Assembly (NCBI GenBank): GCA_937863745.1
Contig: CALMHN010000068.1
Coordinates: forward strand, 1-49,493
Length of the DNA: 49,493 nucleotides
Source: an uncultured bacterium
Lineage (GTDB): Bacteria; Bacillota_I; Bacilli_A; RF39; UBA660
Direction: 5' to 3'
Made by a program: the position numbers and the translations under genes
Notes under the pieces: model-generated
The model's input: the letters and a program-made list of their open reading frames with translations, nothing else
Databases searched by the model: none
What the model was told of the DNA's origin: nothing
Part shown: positions 12,829-33,862 of the stretch, one piece after another
Position numbering within the stretch: the first letter of the stretch is position 1
How the letters are laid out: each line of letters starts with the position of its first letter

Positions 12829-14415
12829 CTATTCTATATTTATATTTTTATCGCCAAACAATTCTTTGGCTTCCGTAACAAACGTATTATCTTTATTAAT
12901 AAATTCTTCTTCCTCCATGATTGTATATTGTTTATTTTTATCAAATGTTTTTAACAATTTCTTCCAATCATTTTCTGAAATAAAAATTAATTCATAATTT
13001 TTATTAAACTTCTTAGAAAATTTATTTTCAATAAAATACAACTTAGCATTTAATATTACTTTGGTACTTTCGCTTTTTACAACAATAATAGCGTTTTTTT
13101 CCGATGCCACCATTGGAATGCTATCACGAGTTACTGCTAAAATATCTCGGATGTCTTCTTCCTTAATGTATTTTATAAAATCATTCCAAGTATTAATAAA
13201 GTCTTGTTTAATGTTTTTAGATGCATTTACAAAGGAATTATTTATTCTAACATTTATAAATTCATCACACATTTTGTAATAATTATCGCTTTTATTGTCC
13301 TTAATCATTTTGTTTACGTCAATTTTAGTGTCAAGTTGAATTATTTCCCGGGAAATAATTTGATTTATTTCTCTATTTGAAATTTTATTTTCATCATCAT
13401 TTATAAATGATATTAACTCTATTTGTAATAATAAATAGCCATTTAAGCCATCATTTAGCTTTTCTTCAATTTCATTTAATGATTTTATTATATTTTTTAA
13501 TTGATTAAATGCGTTATTACTAATGTTTTTTCTTTTAATTTGAATTGCTTTATTTAAGAAGTTATCTATTAGTTTATCAATCAATACTTTTATATTAACT
13601 CCCGATGCCTTTATTTCGCTTATTTTATCAATTAGCGTATCTAAGTCATTATGAAGTATTGCTGTATAAATTATATCAATATCATAATCAGTGACTGTTC
13701 CATAGTTTTGTTTAAGAATATCGACCGTGACAACATCAGCTGCTTTAGATAACTGATCAAGTACGCTTAAAGCATCACGCATACAACCATCTGATATGTT
13801 GCTTATTTCTTTTATTGCATCTTCTTCATATTTAATATTTTCTTTTTCACATATTTTTTCTAGATGTTTAGTTATTTCATCCTTATTTATTCTACAAAAG
13901 TCAAAACGTTGACATCTAGATAATATAGTAAGAGGAACCTTTTGAATCTCAGTTGTTGCTAAAATAAAAATAACATTTTCTGGTGGTTCTTCAAGTGTTT
14001 TAAGAAATGCGTTCCAGGCTGATGATGAAAGCATATGTGCTTCATCAATTATGTATATTTTATATTTGCTCATTGCTGGGGCTACTTGAACGCCATCAAT
14101 TATTAGACGCATATTATCAACACCATTGTTACTGGCTGCATCAAGCTCTATAATATCTGGATTATTATTAAAGTTTTTGCAGTTATCACATTTCTCGCAT
14201 GGAATTCCATTAGTAGAATTGGTACAGTTTAATGCTTTTGCAAAAAGTTTTGCCGTGCTTGTCTTGCCCGTTCCTCTTGGGCCTGTAAATAAATATGCAT
14301 GGGCTATTTTGTTTTCAATAATAGAGTTTTTAAGTATTTTAATAATGTGTTCTTGGCCTATTAATTCGTCAAAATTATTCGGTCTATATTTTCTGTATAA
14401 TACTTTATAATTCAT
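12829..14415 (-). CDS. dnaX: DNA polymerase III tau/gamma subunit
   Basis: Walker A GPRGTGKTS, zinc module CEKCDNC, DEAHML and SRCQRF motifs. Confidence 0.95.
   Translation of the reverse strand: MNYKVLYRKYRPNNFDELIGQEHIIKILKNSIIENKIAHAYLFTGPRGTGKTSTAKLFAKALNCTNSTNGIPCEKCDNCKNFNNNPDIIELDAASNNGVDNMRLIIDGVQVAPAMSKYKIYIIDEAHMLSSSAWNAFLKTLEEPPENVIFILATTEIQKVPLTILSRCQRFDFCRINKDEITKHLEKICEKENIKYEEDAIKEISNISDGCMRDALSVLDQLSKAADVVTVDILKQNYGTVTDYDIDIIYTAILHNDLDTLIDKISEIKASGVNIKVLIDKLIDNFLNKAIQIKRKNISNNAFNQLKNIIKSLNEIEEKLNDGLNGYLLLQIELISFINDDENKISNREINQIISREIIQLDTKIDVNKMIKDNKSDNYYKMCDEFINVRINNSFVNASKNIKQDFINTWNDFIKYIKEEDIRDILAVTRDSIPMVASEKNAIIVVKSESTKVILNAKLYFIENKFSKKFNKNYELIFISENDWKKLLKTFDKNKQYTIMEEEEFINKDNTFVTEAKELFGDKNINIE
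13339..13360. promoter_or_regulatory. perfect 22-bp palindrome containing the Noc-binding-site consensus ATTTCCCGGGAAAT
   Basis: AATTATTTCCCGGGAAATAATT read directly. The core at 13343-13356 equals the NBS consensus described for B. subtilis Noc. It lies inside the dnaX coding sequence. Confidence 0.55.
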
Positions 14416-15064: not shown

Positions 15065-15080
15065 TGTTTCACGTGAAACA
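15065..15080. promoter_or_regulatory. parS: parS site 1 (perfect consensus)
   Basis: TGTTTCACGTGAAACA. The palindrome extends to 20 bp (15063-15082). Confidence 0.85.
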
Positions 15081-15194
15081 TTGTTTATAACTATTTATGT
15101 ACAAGTTATAACTATGCAGATATTATTTGATTATAAATAGTTATACTATTTTTTAAATTTTATTCATAATCATTGAAATCATATTTTTTTCTAC

Positions 15195-15216
15195 GCGCAG
15201 CTAATAATAGCTGCGC
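15195..15216 (+). terminator. GC-rich hairpin H1 (terminator-like on the plus strand)
   Basis: GCGCAGCTA-ATAA-TAGCTGCGC followed by TTATTTTATTT. Confidence 0.4.
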
Positions 15217-15286
15217 TTATTTTATTTATGCATTATTTTTTCAGATATTTTGTTAAGTCAACGTATTTACGTGTTAAAATGGTCAA

Positions 15287-15302
15287 TGTTTCACGTGAAA
15301 CA
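15287..15302. promoter_or_regulatory. parS: parS site 2 (perfect consensus)
   Basis: TGTTTCACGTGAAACA. 22-bp palindrome CAATGTTTCACGTGAAACATTG at 15284-15305. Confidence 0.85.
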
Positions 15303-15415
15303 TTGTTCATAACTATTATATTCATGTTTAATCTTATAAAAGATCCAATAATGTTGGATTCATTTTGAAAATTATTAATAAATGCTCCAATCAACTTTTT
15401 TGTCATAATTTCTAC

Positions 15416-15437
15416 GCGCAACTAAAAATAGTTGCGC
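15416..15437 (+). terminator. GC-rich hairpin H2
   Basis: GCGCAACTA-AAAA-TAGTTGCGC followed by TTATATTGTTTATT. Confidence 0.4.
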
Positions 15438-15503
15438 TTATATTGTTTATTCACTTTTTGATATTTCAGTTAATGCAACGCAATTACGTGCTAAAATGGT
15501 CAA

Positions 15504-15519
15504 TGTTTCACGTGAAACA
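15504..15519. promoter_or_regulatory. parS: parS site 3 (perfect consensus)
   Basis: TGTTTCACGTGAAACA. 22-bp palindrome at 15501-15522. Confidence 0.85.
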
Positions 15520-15691
15520 TTGTTTATAACTTCTTTACGAGCATTTGATTTTATAATAGAGATAATAATGTAAGATCTATTATTATTTTTTTAACTATTG
15601 TTTATTAAGCTACTCTATTAATATTATCTTTTCAATTTATATACCGTATATTAATTTAAGTTATATATCATAATCAGAGCAAAATTCTTAC

Positions 15692-15714
15692 GCGCAGCAA
15701 AATAATTGCTGCGC
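15692..15714 (+). terminator. GC-rich hairpin H3
   Basis: GCGCAGCAA-AATAA-TTGCTGCGC followed by TTTATAATCC. Confidence 0.4.
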
Positions 15715-15787
15715 TTTATAATCCAAACGTGTTAATTTTTTCGATTATCTTTAATAAAATAACGTAATTTCGTACCAAAACCACCAA

Positions 15788-15803
15788 TGTTTCACGTGAA
15801 ACA
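15788..15803. promoter_or_regulatory. parS: parS site 4 (perfect consensus)
   Basis: TGTTTCACGTGAAACA. 22-bp palindrome at 15785-15806. Confidence 0.85.
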
Positions 15804-15898
15804 TTGTTCATAACTATATATATAGGTAAATTGCATACTGTCTATATTGTATCTATTTATTATTTAAATCATGTTATATATTTAATCATATTTCTTAC

Positions 15899-15921
15899 GC
15901 GCAGCAAATTAATTGCTGCGC
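15899..15921 (+). terminator. GC-rich hairpin H4
   Basis: GCGCAGCAA-ATTAA-TTGCTGCGC. The downstream tract is less U-rich than for the other hairpins. Confidence 0.35.
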
Positions 15922-15994
15922 TCTACAATATATATTTGTTAATTGTTTGGATTGTTTTTAATAAGATAACGTAATTACGTACTAAAATGGTCAA

Positions 15995-16010
15995 TGTTTC
16001 ACGTGAAACA
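15995..16010. promoter_or_regulatory. parS: parS site 5 (perfect consensus)
   Basis: TGTTTCACGTGAAACA. 22-bp palindrome at 15992-16013. Preceded by the perfect dyad ACGTAATTACGT at 15969-15980. Confidence 0.85.
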
Positions 16011-16134
16011 TTGTTTATAACGTCGTTACGAACGTTTCATTTAATAATAGAGATAATAATATTAGATATTTTATTTAATTTATATATTGTTTATGAATTT
16101 AAGTAATATGTCATAATCAGAGTAAAATTCTTAC

Positions 16135-16157
16135 GCGCAGCAAAACAATTGCTGCGC
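16135..16157 (+). terminator. GC-rich hairpin H5
   Basis: GCGCAGCAA-AACAA-TTGCTGCGC followed by TTTATAATCC. Confidence 0.4.
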
Positions 16158-16230
16158 TTTATAATCCAAATGTGTTAATTTTTTTGATTATTTTTTATAA
16201 GGTAACGTAATTTCATACCAAAACCGCCAA

Positions 16231-16246
16231 TGTTTCACGTGAAACA
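16231..16246. promoter_or_regulatory. parS: parS site 6 (perfect consensus)
   Basis: TGTTTCACGTGAAACA. 22-bp palindrome at 16228-16249. Confidence 0.85.
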
Positions 16247-16395
16247 TTGTTCATAACTATTTACAAACGACTATAAGTTATCATTTGTATTAATAATTAT
16301 CATTGTCTAATTCATTATATTAATAACATAATGCTATTATTAATATAATCAAAGAATCATATACATGTAACGTATTTACGTGTTAAAAAGGTCAA

Positions 16396-16411
16396 TGTTT
16401 CACGTGAAACA
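16396..16411. promoter_or_regulatory. parS: parS site 7 (perfect consensus)
   Basis: TGTTTCACGTGAAACA. 18-bp palindrome at 16395-16412, directly abutting the gyrA terminator. Confidence 0.85.
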
Positions 16412-29218: not shown

Positions 29219-31081
29219 ATGAAATATGATGTTATTGTTGTTGGTGGAGGACATGCTGGATGTGAAGCTGCAAATGCATCTGCTAAACAGGGTTTAAAGG
29301 TAATGCTTATTACTTCTGATTTGAATAATATAGCAGATATGCCATGTAATCCTTCTATTGGTGGAACAGCTAAGGGTATTGTTGTTCGTGAAATAGATGC
29401 TTTAGGTGGTTTGATGGGACGTGTTGCAGATGTTTCTCATCTTCAAATAAAGATGTTAAATTCTAGTAAGGGTCCTGCAGTTAAATCATTAAGAGCTCAA
29501 GGTGATAAGGTAACTTATCCTAAAAATATGAAGAAAGAATTAATGAGTATAAAGACCTTAGATATTGTTGAAGGTATGGTTGAGGATTTAATTGTTGAAG
29601 ATAAGACTATTAAGGGTATTGTTACTGGAGATGGTAAAACTTATTATTGTACATGTTTAGTACTTACAACTGGTACTTATTTAAAGAGTAAAATTCTTGT
29701 TGGATCTACACATAAGTTTGAAGGGCCTCATGGTCAAACATCATCAAAGTTTTTGTCTGATAAGTTAAGAGACTTAGGTTTTGATATTCTAAGACTTAAA
29801 ACTGGTACTCCTCAAAGAATAGATCCTGATTCAGTTGATTATTCTAAATTAAAACCTGAATATGGAGATAAGACTCCATGGACTTTTTCATTTGATTTAG
29901 AGCCTCAGTATGACGTTGATAAGCAAAGATGTTGTTATTTAGTTTATACTAATGAAACTACACATAAGATTATTAGAGATAATTTAAGTAAGAGTGCAAT
30001 GTATGGTGGATATGCTGAAGGTATAGGACCTAGATATTGTCCTTCTATAGAAGATAAAGTTGTTAGATTTGCTAGCAAAGATAGACATCAATTATTTCTA
30101 GAACCTGAAAGTGATTTTTATCCTGACTTGTATTTACAAGGATTTTCTACATCTATGCCTACCGATGTTCAGGAATTAATGGTTCATTCTTTAGTTGGAT
30201 TGGAACATGCTAAAATATTAAAATATGCTTATGCTATTGAATATGATGCTATAAATCCATTACAAATGATGCCATCTGAAGAGTCAAAGGTTATTCATAA
30301 TTTATTTACTGCTGGTCAAATAAATGGTACTTCTGGATATGAAGAAGCTGCTGGACAAGGTGTTATTGCGGGAATTAATGCCGGTTTAAAGTGTCGTGGC
30401 ATGGAACCATTAATATTAGGACGTAATGAGTCTTACATTGGCGTATTGCTTGATGATTTGGTAACTAAAGGTACTAAAGAACCATATAGATTATTAACTT
30501 CTCGTGCAGAATATAGACTTATATTACGTCATGATAATGCTGATTTAAGACTTAGAGAATATGGCTATAAAGTTGGCATTATCTCAGAAGAACAACATGA
30601 TAGATTACTTAAGAAGGAAGAAGATATTAAATCTTTAATTAATGATTTAAATAATATTAAATTACATCCAAGTGATATTTCTAATGCTATAAAAGATGTA
30701 GTAGGAGAAATAGATAAAGGATATACTTTATATGAATTATTAAAGAGACCTGAAATAACTATTGATATGTTAAAGGAATATATTACGAATTCTTATAGTG
30801 ATGAAGTATATAATGTTGTAGAGATTCAAGTTAAATATGAAGGATATATTGCTAAAACTAATAGAGAAGTAGAAAAAATGATGAAATTAGAAAGCAAGAA
30901 GATTCCATTAGATATTGATTATGATAAGGTTTTAAATATTGCTAGTGAAGCTCGTCAAAAGTTAAAATTAGTTAAACCTTTAACAATTGCTCAAGCAAGT
31001 CGTATATCTGGAGTTAATCCTGCTGATATTGCTGTTTTATCTGTATATTTAAAAAAGGAATATAGTAAGAATAATGAATAA
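29219..31081 (+). CDS. mnmG: tRNA uridine 5-carboxymethylaminomethyl modification enzyme MnmG
   Basis: FAD motif VIVVGGGHAGCEA, then GPRYCPSIEDK. Confidence 0.95.
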   Translation: MKYDVIVVGGGHAGCEAANASAKQGLKVMLITSDLNNIADMPCNPSIGGTAKGIVVREIDALGGLMGRVADVSHLQIKMLNSSKGPAVKSLRAQGDKVTYPKNMKKELMSIKTLDIVEGMVEDLIVEDKTIKGIVTGDGKTYYCTCLVLTTGTYLKSKILVGSTHKFEGPHGQTSSKFLSDKLRDLGFDILRLKTGTPQRIDPDSVDYSKLKPEYGDKTPWTFSFDLEPQYDVDKQRCCYLVYTNETTHKIIRDNLSKSAMYGGYAEGIGPRYCPSIEDKVVRFASKDRHQLFLEPESDFYPDLYLQGFSTSMPTDVQELMVHSLVGLEHAKILKYAYAIEYDAINPLQMMPSEESKVIHNLFTAGQINGTSGYEEAAGQGVIAGINAGLKCRGMEPLILGRNESYIGVLLDDLVTKGTKEPYRLLTSRAEYRLILRHDNADLRLREYGYKVGIISEEQHDRLLKKEEDIKSLINDLNNIKLHPSDISNAIKDVVGEIDKGYTLYELLKRPEITIDMLKEYITNSYSDEVYNVVEIQVKYEGYIAKTNREVEKMMKLESKKIPLDIDYDKVLNIASEARQKLKLVKPLTIAQASRISGVNPADIAVLSVYLKKEYSKNNE

Positions 31082-31796
31082 GGAAGATTTTATAAAAGAG
31101 TTAGCTAAATTAAATATTAAGTTAAGTGATGAGCAACTTAATAAATTAGAAAATTACGCTAATTTCTTAATTGAATATAATAAACATACTAATTTAACAA
31201 CAATTACGGATATTAATGATATATATTTAAAACATTTTTATGATTCTTTAACTATTGTAAAAGCTACTGATTTTACTAGGGTAAATACGTTAATTGATGT
31301 TGGTAGTGGTGCAGGCTTTCCGGGATTAGTTATTAAAATAGTATTTCCAAATATAAATGTAACTTTATTAGATTCTAATAATAAAAAGATTACATTCTTA
31401 AATGAGGTTATTAGTTTATTAAAGTTAGAAAATATTAAGACTGTTAATTCAAGAAGTGAAGATTATGCTTTAAAACACTTAGATGAATTTGATGTTGTTA
31501 CAGCTCGTGCTGTTACGGATTTACAAGGGTTAACTGAAATTTGTTTACCTATGGTTAAAGTTGGTGGTCTATTTATTCCTTTAAAGGGAAATGTTGATGA
31601 GGAATTAAAGTATTCTTATAATATAATTAATAAATTAAATGGTAGTTTGGTTAATAACATTGATTTAACATTACCTGATGATGTTTCTAAGCGTAGTATA
31701 TTGGTTATTAAAAAAAATAGTAAGACACCTAGTGGATATCCAAGATCTTATAGTAAAATCAAAAATGACATTGAAAAAAGGTCTAAAATAAAGTAA
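31074..31796 (+). CDS. rsmG: 16S rRNA (guanine527-N7)-methyltransferase
   Basis: HFYDSL and DVGSGAGFPGL motifs. Overlaps the mnmG stop by 8 nt. Confidence 0.9.
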   Translation: MNKEDFIKELAKLNIKLSDEQLNKLENYANFLIEYNKHTNLTTITDINDIYLKHFYDSLTIVKATDFTRVNTLIDVGSGAGFPGLVIKIVFPNINVTLLDSNNKKITFLNEVISLLKLENIKTVNSRSEDYALKHLDEFDVVTARAVTDLQGLTEICLPMVKVGGLFIPLKGNVDEELKYSYNIINKLNGSLVNNIDLTLPDDVSKRSILVIKKNSKTPSGYPRSYSKIKNDIEKRSKIK

Positions 31797-31829
31797 GATT
31801 AATATAGAATAAGAAGAGGGGATAAAACC

Positions 31830-32939
31830 ATGAAAATGGAAGCTCAAATTAGGTTAGTAAATGTTGAAGATATTATACCTAATAGGTTTCAACCACGTTT
31901 AGAGTTTGATCAAGATGCTTTAAAAGAATTGGCTGAGTCTATTAGAGTTCATGGTATTATTCAACCTTTAGTATTAAGACGTGTAAGTAATAAATTTGAA
32001 ATAATTGCAGGTGAAAGAAGATATAAGGCTTCACAAATGGTGGGACTTACTCAAGTTCCTGCTATTATATGTGCTTTAGATGATAATGAATCAGCTGAAG
32101 TTGCAATTATTGAAAATACTCATAGAAGAGATTTATCAGCTATTGAAGAAGCAACGTCATATAAGAAATTATTAGATAGACATTATTTAACTCAAGAACA
32201 GTTAGCTCAAAGGTTGGGTACATCTCAATCAACAATTGCTAATAAAATTCGTTTATTACAATTGGATGAAAGTGTTCAAGATGCTTTATTAAAAAATAAG
32301 ATAAGTGAAAGACATGCTAGGTCTTTACTTAGAGTTACGGATAAATTCAAACAAGTTGATTTGTTAAATAAAACTATTTCGGAAAAGTGGCCAGTTAAAA
32401 AACTAGATGAAGAAATAGATAAAGTAGTTGGAAGCTATAATAATAGTGCCTCAACTGGTGGTATAAATATTACTGATAATGGTGATATTCAAACAACTGG
32501 CGTTGATATAGGTGCAAATGAAAATACTGAATTATATCAGTATCATAGTAAGATTAATGATGACAATACTAAAAAATCATTATTCTTTAATAACCTTGAA
32601 GATGCTCCAGTTACGATGGATCCTACTTTAAACTTTGGTTTTAATCCATTTCAAACATCAAAACTTAATGAGGAATCAACAGGGATTTTAGATCTTGAAG
32701 ATGAAGAAGAAAGTATTGATGAAATAGATAAGACTGATAATAAAGACGATAAGGATAAAGTTAAAGAAGTCATTAAGGAAAAAGAATATAAAACTACTGA
32801 AGATTTAATTAATGGTATTAAAGATATGATAAATAATGCTCAATTAAATAATGTAGATTTTAAAAGTGAAGAATTTGATTTTGATAAAGTATATCAGTTT
32901 GTTATTAAAGTTAGTAAAGAAGATAAGAAAGAGGAATAG
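31830..32939 (+). CDS. noc: ParB-family protein, Noc-like (nucleoid-occlusion type), with a long low-complexity acidic insertion
   Basis: ParB N-domain IIPNRFQPR...GIIQPLV...IAGERRYKAS. The HTH LTQEQLAQRLGTSQSTIANKIRLLQL...KISERHARSL is nearly identical to B. subtilis Noc ([26 protein letters not shown]...KITERHARAL). The C-terminal EEFDFDKVYQFVIKV resembles the Noc tail EEFEEYIQLTIRI. Confidence 0.8.
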   Translation: MKMEAQIRLVNVEDIIPNRFQPRLEFDQDALKELAESIRVHGIIQPLVLRRVSNKFEIIAGERRYKASQMVGLTQVPAIICALDDNESAEVAIIENTHRRDLSAIEEATSYKKLLDRHYLTQEQLAQRLGTSQSTIANKIRLLQLDESVQDALLKNKISERHARSLLRVTDKFKQVDLLNKTISEKWPVKKLDEEIDKVVGSYNNSASTGGINITDNGDIQTTGVDIGANENTELYQYHSKINDDNTKKSLFFNNLEDAPVTMDPTLNFGFNPFQTSKLNEESTGILDLEDEEESIDEIDKTDNKDDKDKVKEVIKEKEYKTTEDLINGIKDMINNAQLNNVDFKSEEFDFDKVYQFVIKVSKEDKKEE

Positions 32940-32982: not shown

Positions 32983-33324
32983 ATGGAAAAATTAATGTTT
33001 CAATTATATAGTAATAATAATAAAACAATTGATTTAGAATGTAATTATGTTATTAAGGATAATATATATAAATTTAAGATTGATGAAAATATATATCTAT
33101 TTGATAATAACAAACATATTCTAACTAAGAAAATGGTTGATGGATTGCTTAGAATAAATATGCATGATTCTAATATGATATATACTTTAGGTACTAATGG
33201 AAAAGATTATATATTGTCATTAAACGATTCTAAATTATTATTAAATGATAAAAGTTTAGAATATTATTATTCAATACCTGATAATGGAATTAATAATAAA
33301 ATTATAATAAAATGGGATTATTAA
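32983..33324 (+). CDS. hypothetical small protein (113 aa)
   Basis: Start moved to the ATG at 32983 behind AGAGG; the track's 32866 start overlaps the noc-like gene. No motif I can name with confidence. Confidence 0.4.
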   Translation: MEKLMFQLYSNNNKTIDLECNYVIKDNIYKFKIDENIYLFDNNKHILTKKMVDGLLRINMHDSNMIYTLGTNGKDYILSLNDSKLLLNDKSLEYYYSIPDNGINNKIIIKWDY

Positions 33325-33415: not shown

Positions 33416-33862
33416 ATGGCTAAAGAAAAGTTTACTATTAAAGAATTAGAGAGCATGTCCTATACAGATATTGCTAATTATGTTCTTGAACAAGCTGGTA
33501 AAAAAATGACAACTAAGGATTTGTTCTTGAAAGTTATTGAATTACGTGGGGATGATCCTGCTAAAATATTTGAAAGTAGAATCGGAGATTTCTTCGGTTT
33601 AATATCTGCTGATAAAAGATTTATCATGTTAGATAAGGGATTTTGGGATTTAAGAGTTAATCATAAACATCAAGTTGTTAAAATTGAAGAAGACGATGAT
33701 GATGATGAAATAGTTATTGATGAAGAAGAATTAGAAGATAAAGATGATGAATCTAATTTTGATGATGTAGATGAAGTTGATGATGCTGATGACGAAGATG
33801 ATGATCTTAAGGATTTAGTTATTATTGATGATTCAGAGGATGAAGCTAATCAAGATTTATAG
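33416..33862 (+). CDS. rpoE: RNA polymerase delta subunit
   Basis: N-terminal HARE-HTH-like region (SYTDIANYVLE...FFGLISADKRFIMLDKGFWDLR) followed by a poly-Asp/Glu tail. Confidence 0.85.
   Translation: MAKEKFTIKELESMSYTDIANYVLEQAGKKMTTKDLFLKVIELRGDDPAKIFESRIGDFFGLISADKRFIMLDKGFWDLRVNHKHQVVKIEEDDDDDEIVIDEEELEDKDDESNFDDVDEVDDADDEDDDLKDLVIIDDSEDEANQDL

Follow-up and report, generated by a model that had tools for sequence, protein, structure and literature searches.

A helix-less Noc-branch ParB protein and its predicted loading site beside parS in an uncultured bacterium of the order RF39

We describe NocL, a Noc-clade ParB paralogue of 369 residues that has no membrane helix and whose presumed DNA loading site lies close to the parS array of its genome. 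Its gene, nocL (31830..32939, + strand), stands in a 49,493-nt stretch of DNA from contig CALMHN010000068.1 (the window) of an uncultured bacterium of the order RF39; the genome comprises 1.54 Mb in 205 contigs and is 96% complete. Noc is the textbook example of how a duplicated ParB can acquire new features, in its case a new DNA site, a membrane helix and a role that spans the chromosome. We found that NocL keeps the cytidine triphosphate (CTP)-binding N-terminal domain, a helix-turn-helix (HTH) domain with the Gln/Lys/Arg residues that read the Noc-binding site (NBS), and a C-terminal dimerisation-like domain. We think it probable that NocL works at the centromere and does not guard the chromosome as a whole. 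The reading that we prefer, with moderate confidence and from sequence comparisons, is that NocL would be an NBS-loaded CTP clamp that joins the parS-reading protein Spo0J at a composite centromere, with a conserved peptide in its linker as the effector.

Results

NocL groups with Noc and lacks the membrane helix

By Pfam, NocL contains a ParB_N domain (residues 6-97) and an HTH_ParB domain (residues 101-198). Its best NCBIfam model was nucleoid_noc (TIGR04285) at 277.4 bits, below the curated cut-off of 315, which was passed by 0/151 genomes of the order. A sequence search of the PDB ranked Geobacillus Noc (5e-60) and B. subtilis Noc above Spo0J. An AlphaFold2 model of NocL, built on 87 relatives, gave the same ranking by fold, with the Noc structures 7nfu, 7ol9 and 6y93 as best matches; the modelled DNA-binding domain overlaid the Noc-NBS co-crystal 6y93 with a root-mean-square deviation of 1.4-2.0 Å. 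We then considered a maximum-likelihood tree of 47 sequences over the N-domain plus the DNA-binding domain, with a small sampling of canonical Nocs. Spo0J and Noc were split with 100/100 support and NocL fell on the Noc side, where the long-linker clade was sister to one helix-bearing Noc (96/87) and Bacillus, Geobacillus and other Nocs stood on the opposite branch. Within the ParB family, the tree and the sequence and fold comparisons place NocL on the Noc branch, as a derived form.

The ParB N-terminal (CTP-binding) domain, located at 31845..32120 (+ strand) by Pfam and alignment, contains a GERR box (32010-32021, residues 61-64) and an ENxxR motif (residues 95-99). G61, E62, R63, R64, E95, N96 and R99 were invariant in 87 sequences, which bears out the claim of a first-pass annotation of the window that the GERR box is intact.

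The same annotation held that the amphipathic membrane-targeting peptide of Noc is absent, and a check of upstream starts agreed. The 30 nt before nocL (31800..31829, + strand) contain an in-frame TAA (31800-31802) and a Shine-Dalgarno-like GAGGGG element (31816-31821), which ends 8 nt before the ATG at 31830. The frame is open from 31803, and the nine codons between TAA and ATG include no ATG, GTG or TTG. The in-frame stop and the lack of an upstream start codon therefore leave no room for an N-terminal membrane-targeting extension, and an alternative upstream start that might have supplied the helix is ruled out. NocL begins with MKMEAQIRLVNVEDIIPNRFQPR, and an MKME[AS]QI start was conserved in the 87 relatives. 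All of the 150 best NocL representatives of the order (50% clustering; 227-775 residues) began ~15-20 residues before PNRFQPR, without the ~25-residue extension that carries the helix in Noc. Nocs of other families in the class start with MASLFNIL, MGLFDFLG or MNIFSG.

These alignments indicate that throughout the order the helix-less form with a long linker is the norm. Because the basal split within Noc has helix-bearing members on either side, the tree indicates that the helix-less state is derived from a helix-bearing Noc and is no primitive intermediate. A 'proto-Noc' or missing link, in which the helix had not yet been gained and the sites still lay at parS, was rejected by this tree with its small sampling of canonical Nocs.

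NocL is predicted to read the standard NBS

The HTH DNA-binding domain was placed at 32130..32423 (+ strand) by alignment. HMMER alignments to Noc and Spo0J matched positions 173, 179, 184 and 201 of Caulobacter ParB to NocL Q133 (codon 32226-32228), K139 (32244-32246), Q144 (32259-32261) and R161 (32310-32312), exactly the four positions that the first-pass annotation had named. Q133, K139 and R161 were invariant in 87/87 clade members. At position 144 the same members carried S, N, T, Q, A or H, never K or R, and helix-bearing Nocs of other families carry Asn there. Jalal et al. (2020) assigned Q173 to base 1 and R201 to base 6 of the NBS and showed that a single Lys, at either 179 or 184, suffices for recognition of the NBS (PMC7383237). 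Because Q/K/R are invariant and a single Lys at either position is sufficient, NocL is predicted to be Noc-type and to read the standard NBS.

The earlier suggestion that the Q-K-Q-R combination is novel or has dual specificity does not stand, since position 144 varies freely and one Lys at 179 or 184 is enough (PMC7383237). We likewise rejected Q144 as a new specificity determinant, given its variability in the clade and the Asn of helix-bearing Nocs. NocL has Q133 and R161 instead of the parS-reading residues (R173 with Gly or a small residue at 201), and these Noc-type residues support the prediction, made at first pass, that it should not read parS. A further candidate was some other over-represented palindrome as the true Q-K-Q-R site; among repeated 12-, 14- and 16-bp palindromes only parS stood out.

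One perfect NBS lies 1.7 kb from the parS array

A genome-wide pattern search confirmed the seven parS sites reported in the window. All are perfect, and they form an array of Spo0J loading sites at 15065..16411 (unstranded); no further parS occurred in the genome, even with 2 mismatches allowed. The sole perfect NBS of the genome is a 22-bp palindrome, AATTATTTCCCGGGAAATAATT, inside dnaX (13339..13360, unstranded; 16-bp core at 13342-13357), 1.7 kb from the parS array, and is the presumed NocL loading site. Its near-matches were two 2-mismatch matches only, both on other contigs, and ~4e-4 perfect NBS would be expected by chance from base composition.

Within dnaX the NBS is read as ATT ATT TCC CGG GAA ATA ATT, with codons that are rare in this genome (CGG, 0.6% of Arg; TCC, 3.9% of Ser). 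CCCGGG occurs six times in the whole genome. Genera g1 and g12 have the dnaX NBS in the same place, in a stretch of DnaX that is otherwise unconserved. The site is kept while the surrounding DnaX varies; it is therefore the DNA that determines the peptide here, rather than the peptide the DNA. As judged at the sequence level, this pattern demonstrates DNA-level selection on the window's NBS.

Maintenance of perfect NBS palindromes against codon bias argues against NocL being a decaying Noc relic without current function, as do its intact frame and catalytic and DNA-reading residues that are invariant over at least 150 clusters at 50% identity. Decay would fit the loss of the helix, a degenerate copy in a sister family and the absence of the gene from genus g65 (described below); we regard a relic as extremely improbable. 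The degenerate copy is a 247-residue, helix-less Noc-like gene after rsmG in genome G025 of sister family f2 (L063 986-1729). In its protein the four specificity positions read E-K-D-G and NRYKTR replaces NRFQPR; with 1 mismatch allowed, the G025 genome contained neither NBS nor parS.

A Spo0J-Soj pair is encoded on another contig

The first-pass annotation described nocL as lacking ParA and Spo0J partners. This was correct within the window, whose proteins include no ParA and no second ParB besides NocL, but not for the genome. Whole-genome search identified a second ParB gene, spo0J (~296 residues), on contig C85 (L006 7719-8609, - strand), with soj directly upstream and genes for an MscS-type channel and a DUF951 protein downstream. 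Soj has 263 residues, a KGGVGKT Walker A motif and an AAA_31 match (3e-66). The C85 Spo0J has the N-terminus RKALGKGLEQLF, the motif ALGKGLEQLF and Arg at the 173-equivalent position. NocL is without the LG[KR]GL ParA-activating N-terminal motif and has no adjacent parA. The Arg, the ParA-activating motif and Soj together favour the first of two alternatives raised at first pass, namely that a parS-type ParB is encoded elsewhere. The order nocL-soj-spo0J is still common in sister genera (e.g. G015, G021, G023 and G024), and gene order indicates that the soj-spo0J pair has moved in this genus.

The Spo0J proteins of this genome, G021 and G024 have Ser at the G201 equivalent, so that the C85 protein reads R...S. 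Position 201 was described by Jalal et al. (2020) as an invariant Gly in extant ParBs, and Ser or Thr there was linked to dual parS/NBS binding in a mutational scan (PMC7383237). The Ser is notable in a clade with interleaved parS and NBS.

NBS cluster with parS across the order

We sampled 151 genomes from 86 genera of the order and counted NBS within 1 mismatch, with a backwards pattern as control. NBS numbered 0-11 per genome (median 2), and at least one was present in 138/151 genomes; the control matched in ~8/151. An NBS core lay 5-35 bp from a parS core in 41/151 genomes and 28/86 genera (control, 0), and tandem NBS+parS modules reached ten copies. In 20 syntenic loci with the order dnaA-dnaN-recF-gyrB-gyrA-[parS array]-tadA-dnaX, NBS stood within the parS array, at one of its edges or at the dnaX spot, and each NBS in the fetched stretch was at most 17 kb from parS. 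NBS and parS alternated five times in G021, and a 66-bp NBS+parS unit was repeated three times in G015. Five assemblies of 4-6 contigs had all their NBS in one locus, 15-24 kb from nocL. A few NBS were on the opposite side of oriC or immediately before nocL.

Two ParB paralogues, a long Noc-like protein (open frame of 323-764 residues) and a Spo0J of ~296 residues, were encoded in 25/25 genomes of a first sample, and ~144/150 genomes order-wide had the same set. The three genomes of genus g65 (95-96% complete) encode Spo0J only, with no NocL and no NBS, a co-loss that fits NocL and NBS as a cognate pair. Genomes with nocL but zero canonical NBS (G085 and G162 of genus g66, G089, G091, G148 and G170) tend to have the most divergent NocL scores, a sign that the protein and its site may have diverged jointly towards a variant motif.

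In B. subtilis, NBS are distributed all around the chromosome, with the exception of the terminus region (PMC4331003, PMC7383237). Similarly, G038, a complete genome from a different family that encodes a canonical, helix-bearing Noc, had its near-NBS sites dispersed over megabases. This contrast bears on whether NocL is an ordinary nucleoid-occlusion Noc in a rearranged genome, one that would keep division off the chromosome as in Bacillus, its missing helix compensated somehow. Such a role would suit a Noc-clade protein with NBS-type residues in the rsmG-adjacent slot, and the order noc-soj-spo0J is kept in many sister genera. Some spatial division regulator also seems needed, as the genome encodes FtsZ and no MinD above the curated cut-off (the best match to the MinD model was Soj). 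The first-pass annotation had foreseen an ordinary noc if a standard soj-spo0J pair lay elsewhere. The pair was found, but NocL is not ordinary: it is helix-less, scores under the curated Noc cut-off and has few, origin-confined NBS beside parS. B. subtilis Noc no longer functions once its helix is removed (PMC4331003), and one NBS in 1.54 Mb, or 0-11 per genome and origin-clustered where mapped, cannot mark the bulk nucleoid. We therefore consider an ordinary Noc very unlikely.

The positions of NBS in relatives raise a further explanation, in which NocL spreading from NBS would modulate replication initiation or repress neighbouring genes, including nocL. NBS occur on both sides of oriC in several relatives. 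Some genera have one within the 3' end of rsmG or the spacer, 90-300 bp before the nocL start (G020:C4:56257, G013:C10:27044 and G012:C37:11957), where it may serve autoregulation or loading at the gene itself. S. aureus Noc is reported to control replication initiation (PMC5540599), which would also fit. The window's only NBS lies inside dnaX, 12 kb from oriC, and site positions were not tied to promoters. An origin-proximal regulator would also leave the interleaving with parS unexplained, and we judge it distinctly unlikely.

The linker contains a conserved peptide

Residues 205-322 of NocL (32442..32795, + strand) form a disordered acidic linker of 118 residues with a net charge of -18, as assessed by AlphaFold2 and composition; the predicted local distance difference test (pLDDT) score was <50 over most of it. 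The first-pass annotation had described ~120 residues of low-complexity acidic linker. Disorder and acidity were upheld, but the linker is not uniformly low in complexity. An alignment of 87 sequences revealed a conserved linear module, KKSLFFNNLEDAPVTMDPTLNFGFNPF, at residues 247-274 (32568..32651, + strand), in which L256 and E257 were invariant and F252, N254, M263 and F269-F274 were conserved in at least 90% of sequences. In the query's subclade the module KKxSLFFNNLENExANMDPTLxFGFNPF was nearly invariant. A profile of it found [KR]FFN[FN]LE[DN]ExxNM in ~35/150 distant clade representatives, at varied linker positions and sometimes with FNPF downstream. The rest of the linker was hypervariable across the clade in sequence and in length (~100 to >500 residues). 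A family search with the NocL linker alone gave no match. We rejected the motif as a common hub signal, as no other protein of this genome carries it.

At its core the module reads [KR]-F-F-x-x-L and then acidic residues, a pattern similar to R7-F8-F9-G-L-G-E in B. subtilis Noc and to the membrane-targeting peptides of MinD and canonical Noc. Residues K2, S4, F5, R7, F8 and F9 of the B. subtilis Noc helix are documented (PMC4331003). Unlike those peptides, the NocL motif is internal rather than terminal and its surroundings are net acidic. Its further invariant residues N254, E257 and M263 suggest a specific docking site, again unlike the MinD and Noc membrane peptides.

A conserved peptide of 13-28 residues points to a specific contact, and this bears on a cytoplasmic role for NocL with no envelope link. 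NocL clamps beside parS would then act as roadblocks or bookends that shape Spo0J spreading, condensation or SMC loading, and the linker would be an entropic brush or condensate modulator. The hypervariable length and sequence of the linker suit such a bulk-property role, the NBS-parS juxtaposition is tight (5-35 bp) and evolved repeatedly, and SMC is encoded in the genome. NBS also often bracketed the parS array from its outer edges in G005 (L037), G022 (L053) and G023 (L054); this arrangement was inconsistent across genera. No fixed helical phase between NBS and parS was seen in the 20 loci. With neither fixed phase nor consistent edges, and with the peptide conserved, we find a purely cytoplasmic accessory rather unlikely.

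The C-terminal domain of NocL (32796..32912, + strand) is a helix followed by two strands, presumed to be the dimerisation domain from the AlphaFold2 model and a weak TIGR04285 match. The model gave H323-339, E344-350 and E355-361 at a pLDDT of ~80. The first-pass annotation had called this domain Noc-like; the fold agrees, but sequence support is weak, as the C-terminal piece alone matched TIGR04285 positions 210-255 with an E-value of 0.07. An EEFxF...YQ motif in this domain was conserved in NocL relatives.

The nocL locus

The canonical noc slot is marked by rsmG (31074..31796, + strand; Pfam GidB, 6.9e-51), and nocL lies directly 3' of it, in the gene string yidC-jag-mnmE-mnmG-rsmG just right of oriC. 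The guanine-cytosine (GC) skew flips at ~25-26 kb of the window. The only ParB-family gene of the window therefore adjoins rsmG, as first described. Downstream, a small overlapping open reading frame (32983-33324) had a sub-threshold RexA match and nothing else. It is followed by a gene for a 148-residue protein (33416-33862, + strand) with a weak HARE-HTH match and a long Asp/Glu tail, which resembles the RNA-polymerase delta subunit (RpoE). The genome also encodes two DivIVA homologues (DivIVA-domain genes).

Discussion

Our preferred reading, a clamp that shares the centromere with Spo0J, can be set out as a mechanism. NocL dimers would nucleate at the dnaX NBS, 1.7 kb from the parS array. 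Once loaded, NocL would close into a CTP clamp and slide over origin-proximal kilobases that Spo0J would also occupy. With both clamps on the same kilobases, the origin would therefore carry a mixed two-clamp partition complex of NocL and Spo0J. Spo0J and Soj, encoded on the other contig, would remain the parS-reading partition system, and chromosome-wide, membrane-tethered nucleoid occlusion would not be the job of NocL. The effector would be the long, acidic, flexible linker with its [KR]FFNxLE-ExxNM...FNPF peptide. This peptide could link the origin complex to the envelope, through weak membrane binding or by docking on a membrane-associated division or polar protein. An envelope link is the role that we conjecture to be most likely for the peptide. 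Origins would in consequence be positioned or anchored, or division would be kept off origins locally.

Several observations weigh against this reading. The genome studied here is the mildest form of the arrangement, with one NBS, 1.7 kb off the array and not interleaved, and the evidence for tandem NBS+parS modules comes from its relatives. Origin proximity of NBS holds among the matches listed, with 644 matches beyond these. Canonical-Noc genomes sampled from other families also have few exact NBS, and 0-5 within 1 mismatch; the contrast with NocL genomes therefore rests on clustering versus dispersal and not on count alone. The co-loss of NocL and NBS in genus g65 is a single independent event. 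For the linker, the full FGFNPF part is restricted to the query's own subclade, AlphaFold2 predicted no helix at the motif, and the motif region is net acidic.

A broader version of the proposal would extend it to the whole order. Noc would have been re-purposed as a second obligate kinetochore-like clamp, with NBS and parS co-selected as one composite centromere and the membrane peptide effectively relocated from the N-terminal end to a flexible tether. Origins would then be anchored or positioned at the envelope, or locally shielded from the divisome in Min-less cells. We offer this extension tentatively, as a possible but doubtful account.

In the literature examined, including a 2025 survey of ParB-CTPase folds, we found no description of a helix-less Noc or of mixed parS/NBS arrays. 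Genes of the NocL type are currently annotated as 'ParB/RepB/Spo0J family partition protein', yet they are predicted to be non-readers of parS. A whole order, with at least 86 genera sampled, keeps the DNA specificity of Noc with the helix dropped. This amounts to a natural experiment on what a Noc scaffold can do without membrane tethering, on how the same stretch of DNA accommodates two paralogous CTP clamps, and on how ParB-family proteins are rewired through short motifs in disordered tethers. The predictions are testable in vitro with purified protein and 22-bp duplexes, although the hosts are uncultured.

Among known systems, NocL is closest to the Noc proteins of B. subtilis, Geobacillus thermoleovorans and S. 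aureus (TIGR04285; PDB 7nfu, 7ng0, 7ol9 and 6y93). It shares with them the branch of the ParB family, the rsmG slot, the GERR box and the Q/K/R residues; its N-domain and DNA-binding domain are ~50% identical to theirs, and a perfect 16-bp NBS is present in its genome. Unlike Noc, NocL is without the N-terminal amphipathic membrane helix and scores below the family cut-off. The linker of Noc is short and basic, whereas that of NocL is 118 residues long, acidic and disordered, with a conserved peptide. Noc sites are scattered round the chromosome; NocL sites are few (1 here) and, where mapped, origin-clustered beside parS.

The ParB/Spo0J-parS-Soj system shares its fold with NocL and probably also the chemistry of CTP-clamp loading and sliding, and its loading sites are, like those of NocL, origin-proximal, clustered and centromere-like. 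In contrast to Spo0J, NocL is predicted to read NBS and not parS (Q and R replace R and G/S) and has no LG[KR]GL peptide, and the genuine Spo0J-Soj pair is separate, on C85. In sporulating B. subtilis, the RacA-ram-DivIVA system uses a site-specific DNA-binding protein with sites near the origin, which acts with Spo0J-parS to position origins. The RacA family is unrelated to NocL, and the analogy is functional only: NocL would likewise be a second origin-site binder beside Spo0J-parS, in a genome that encodes two DivIVA homologues.

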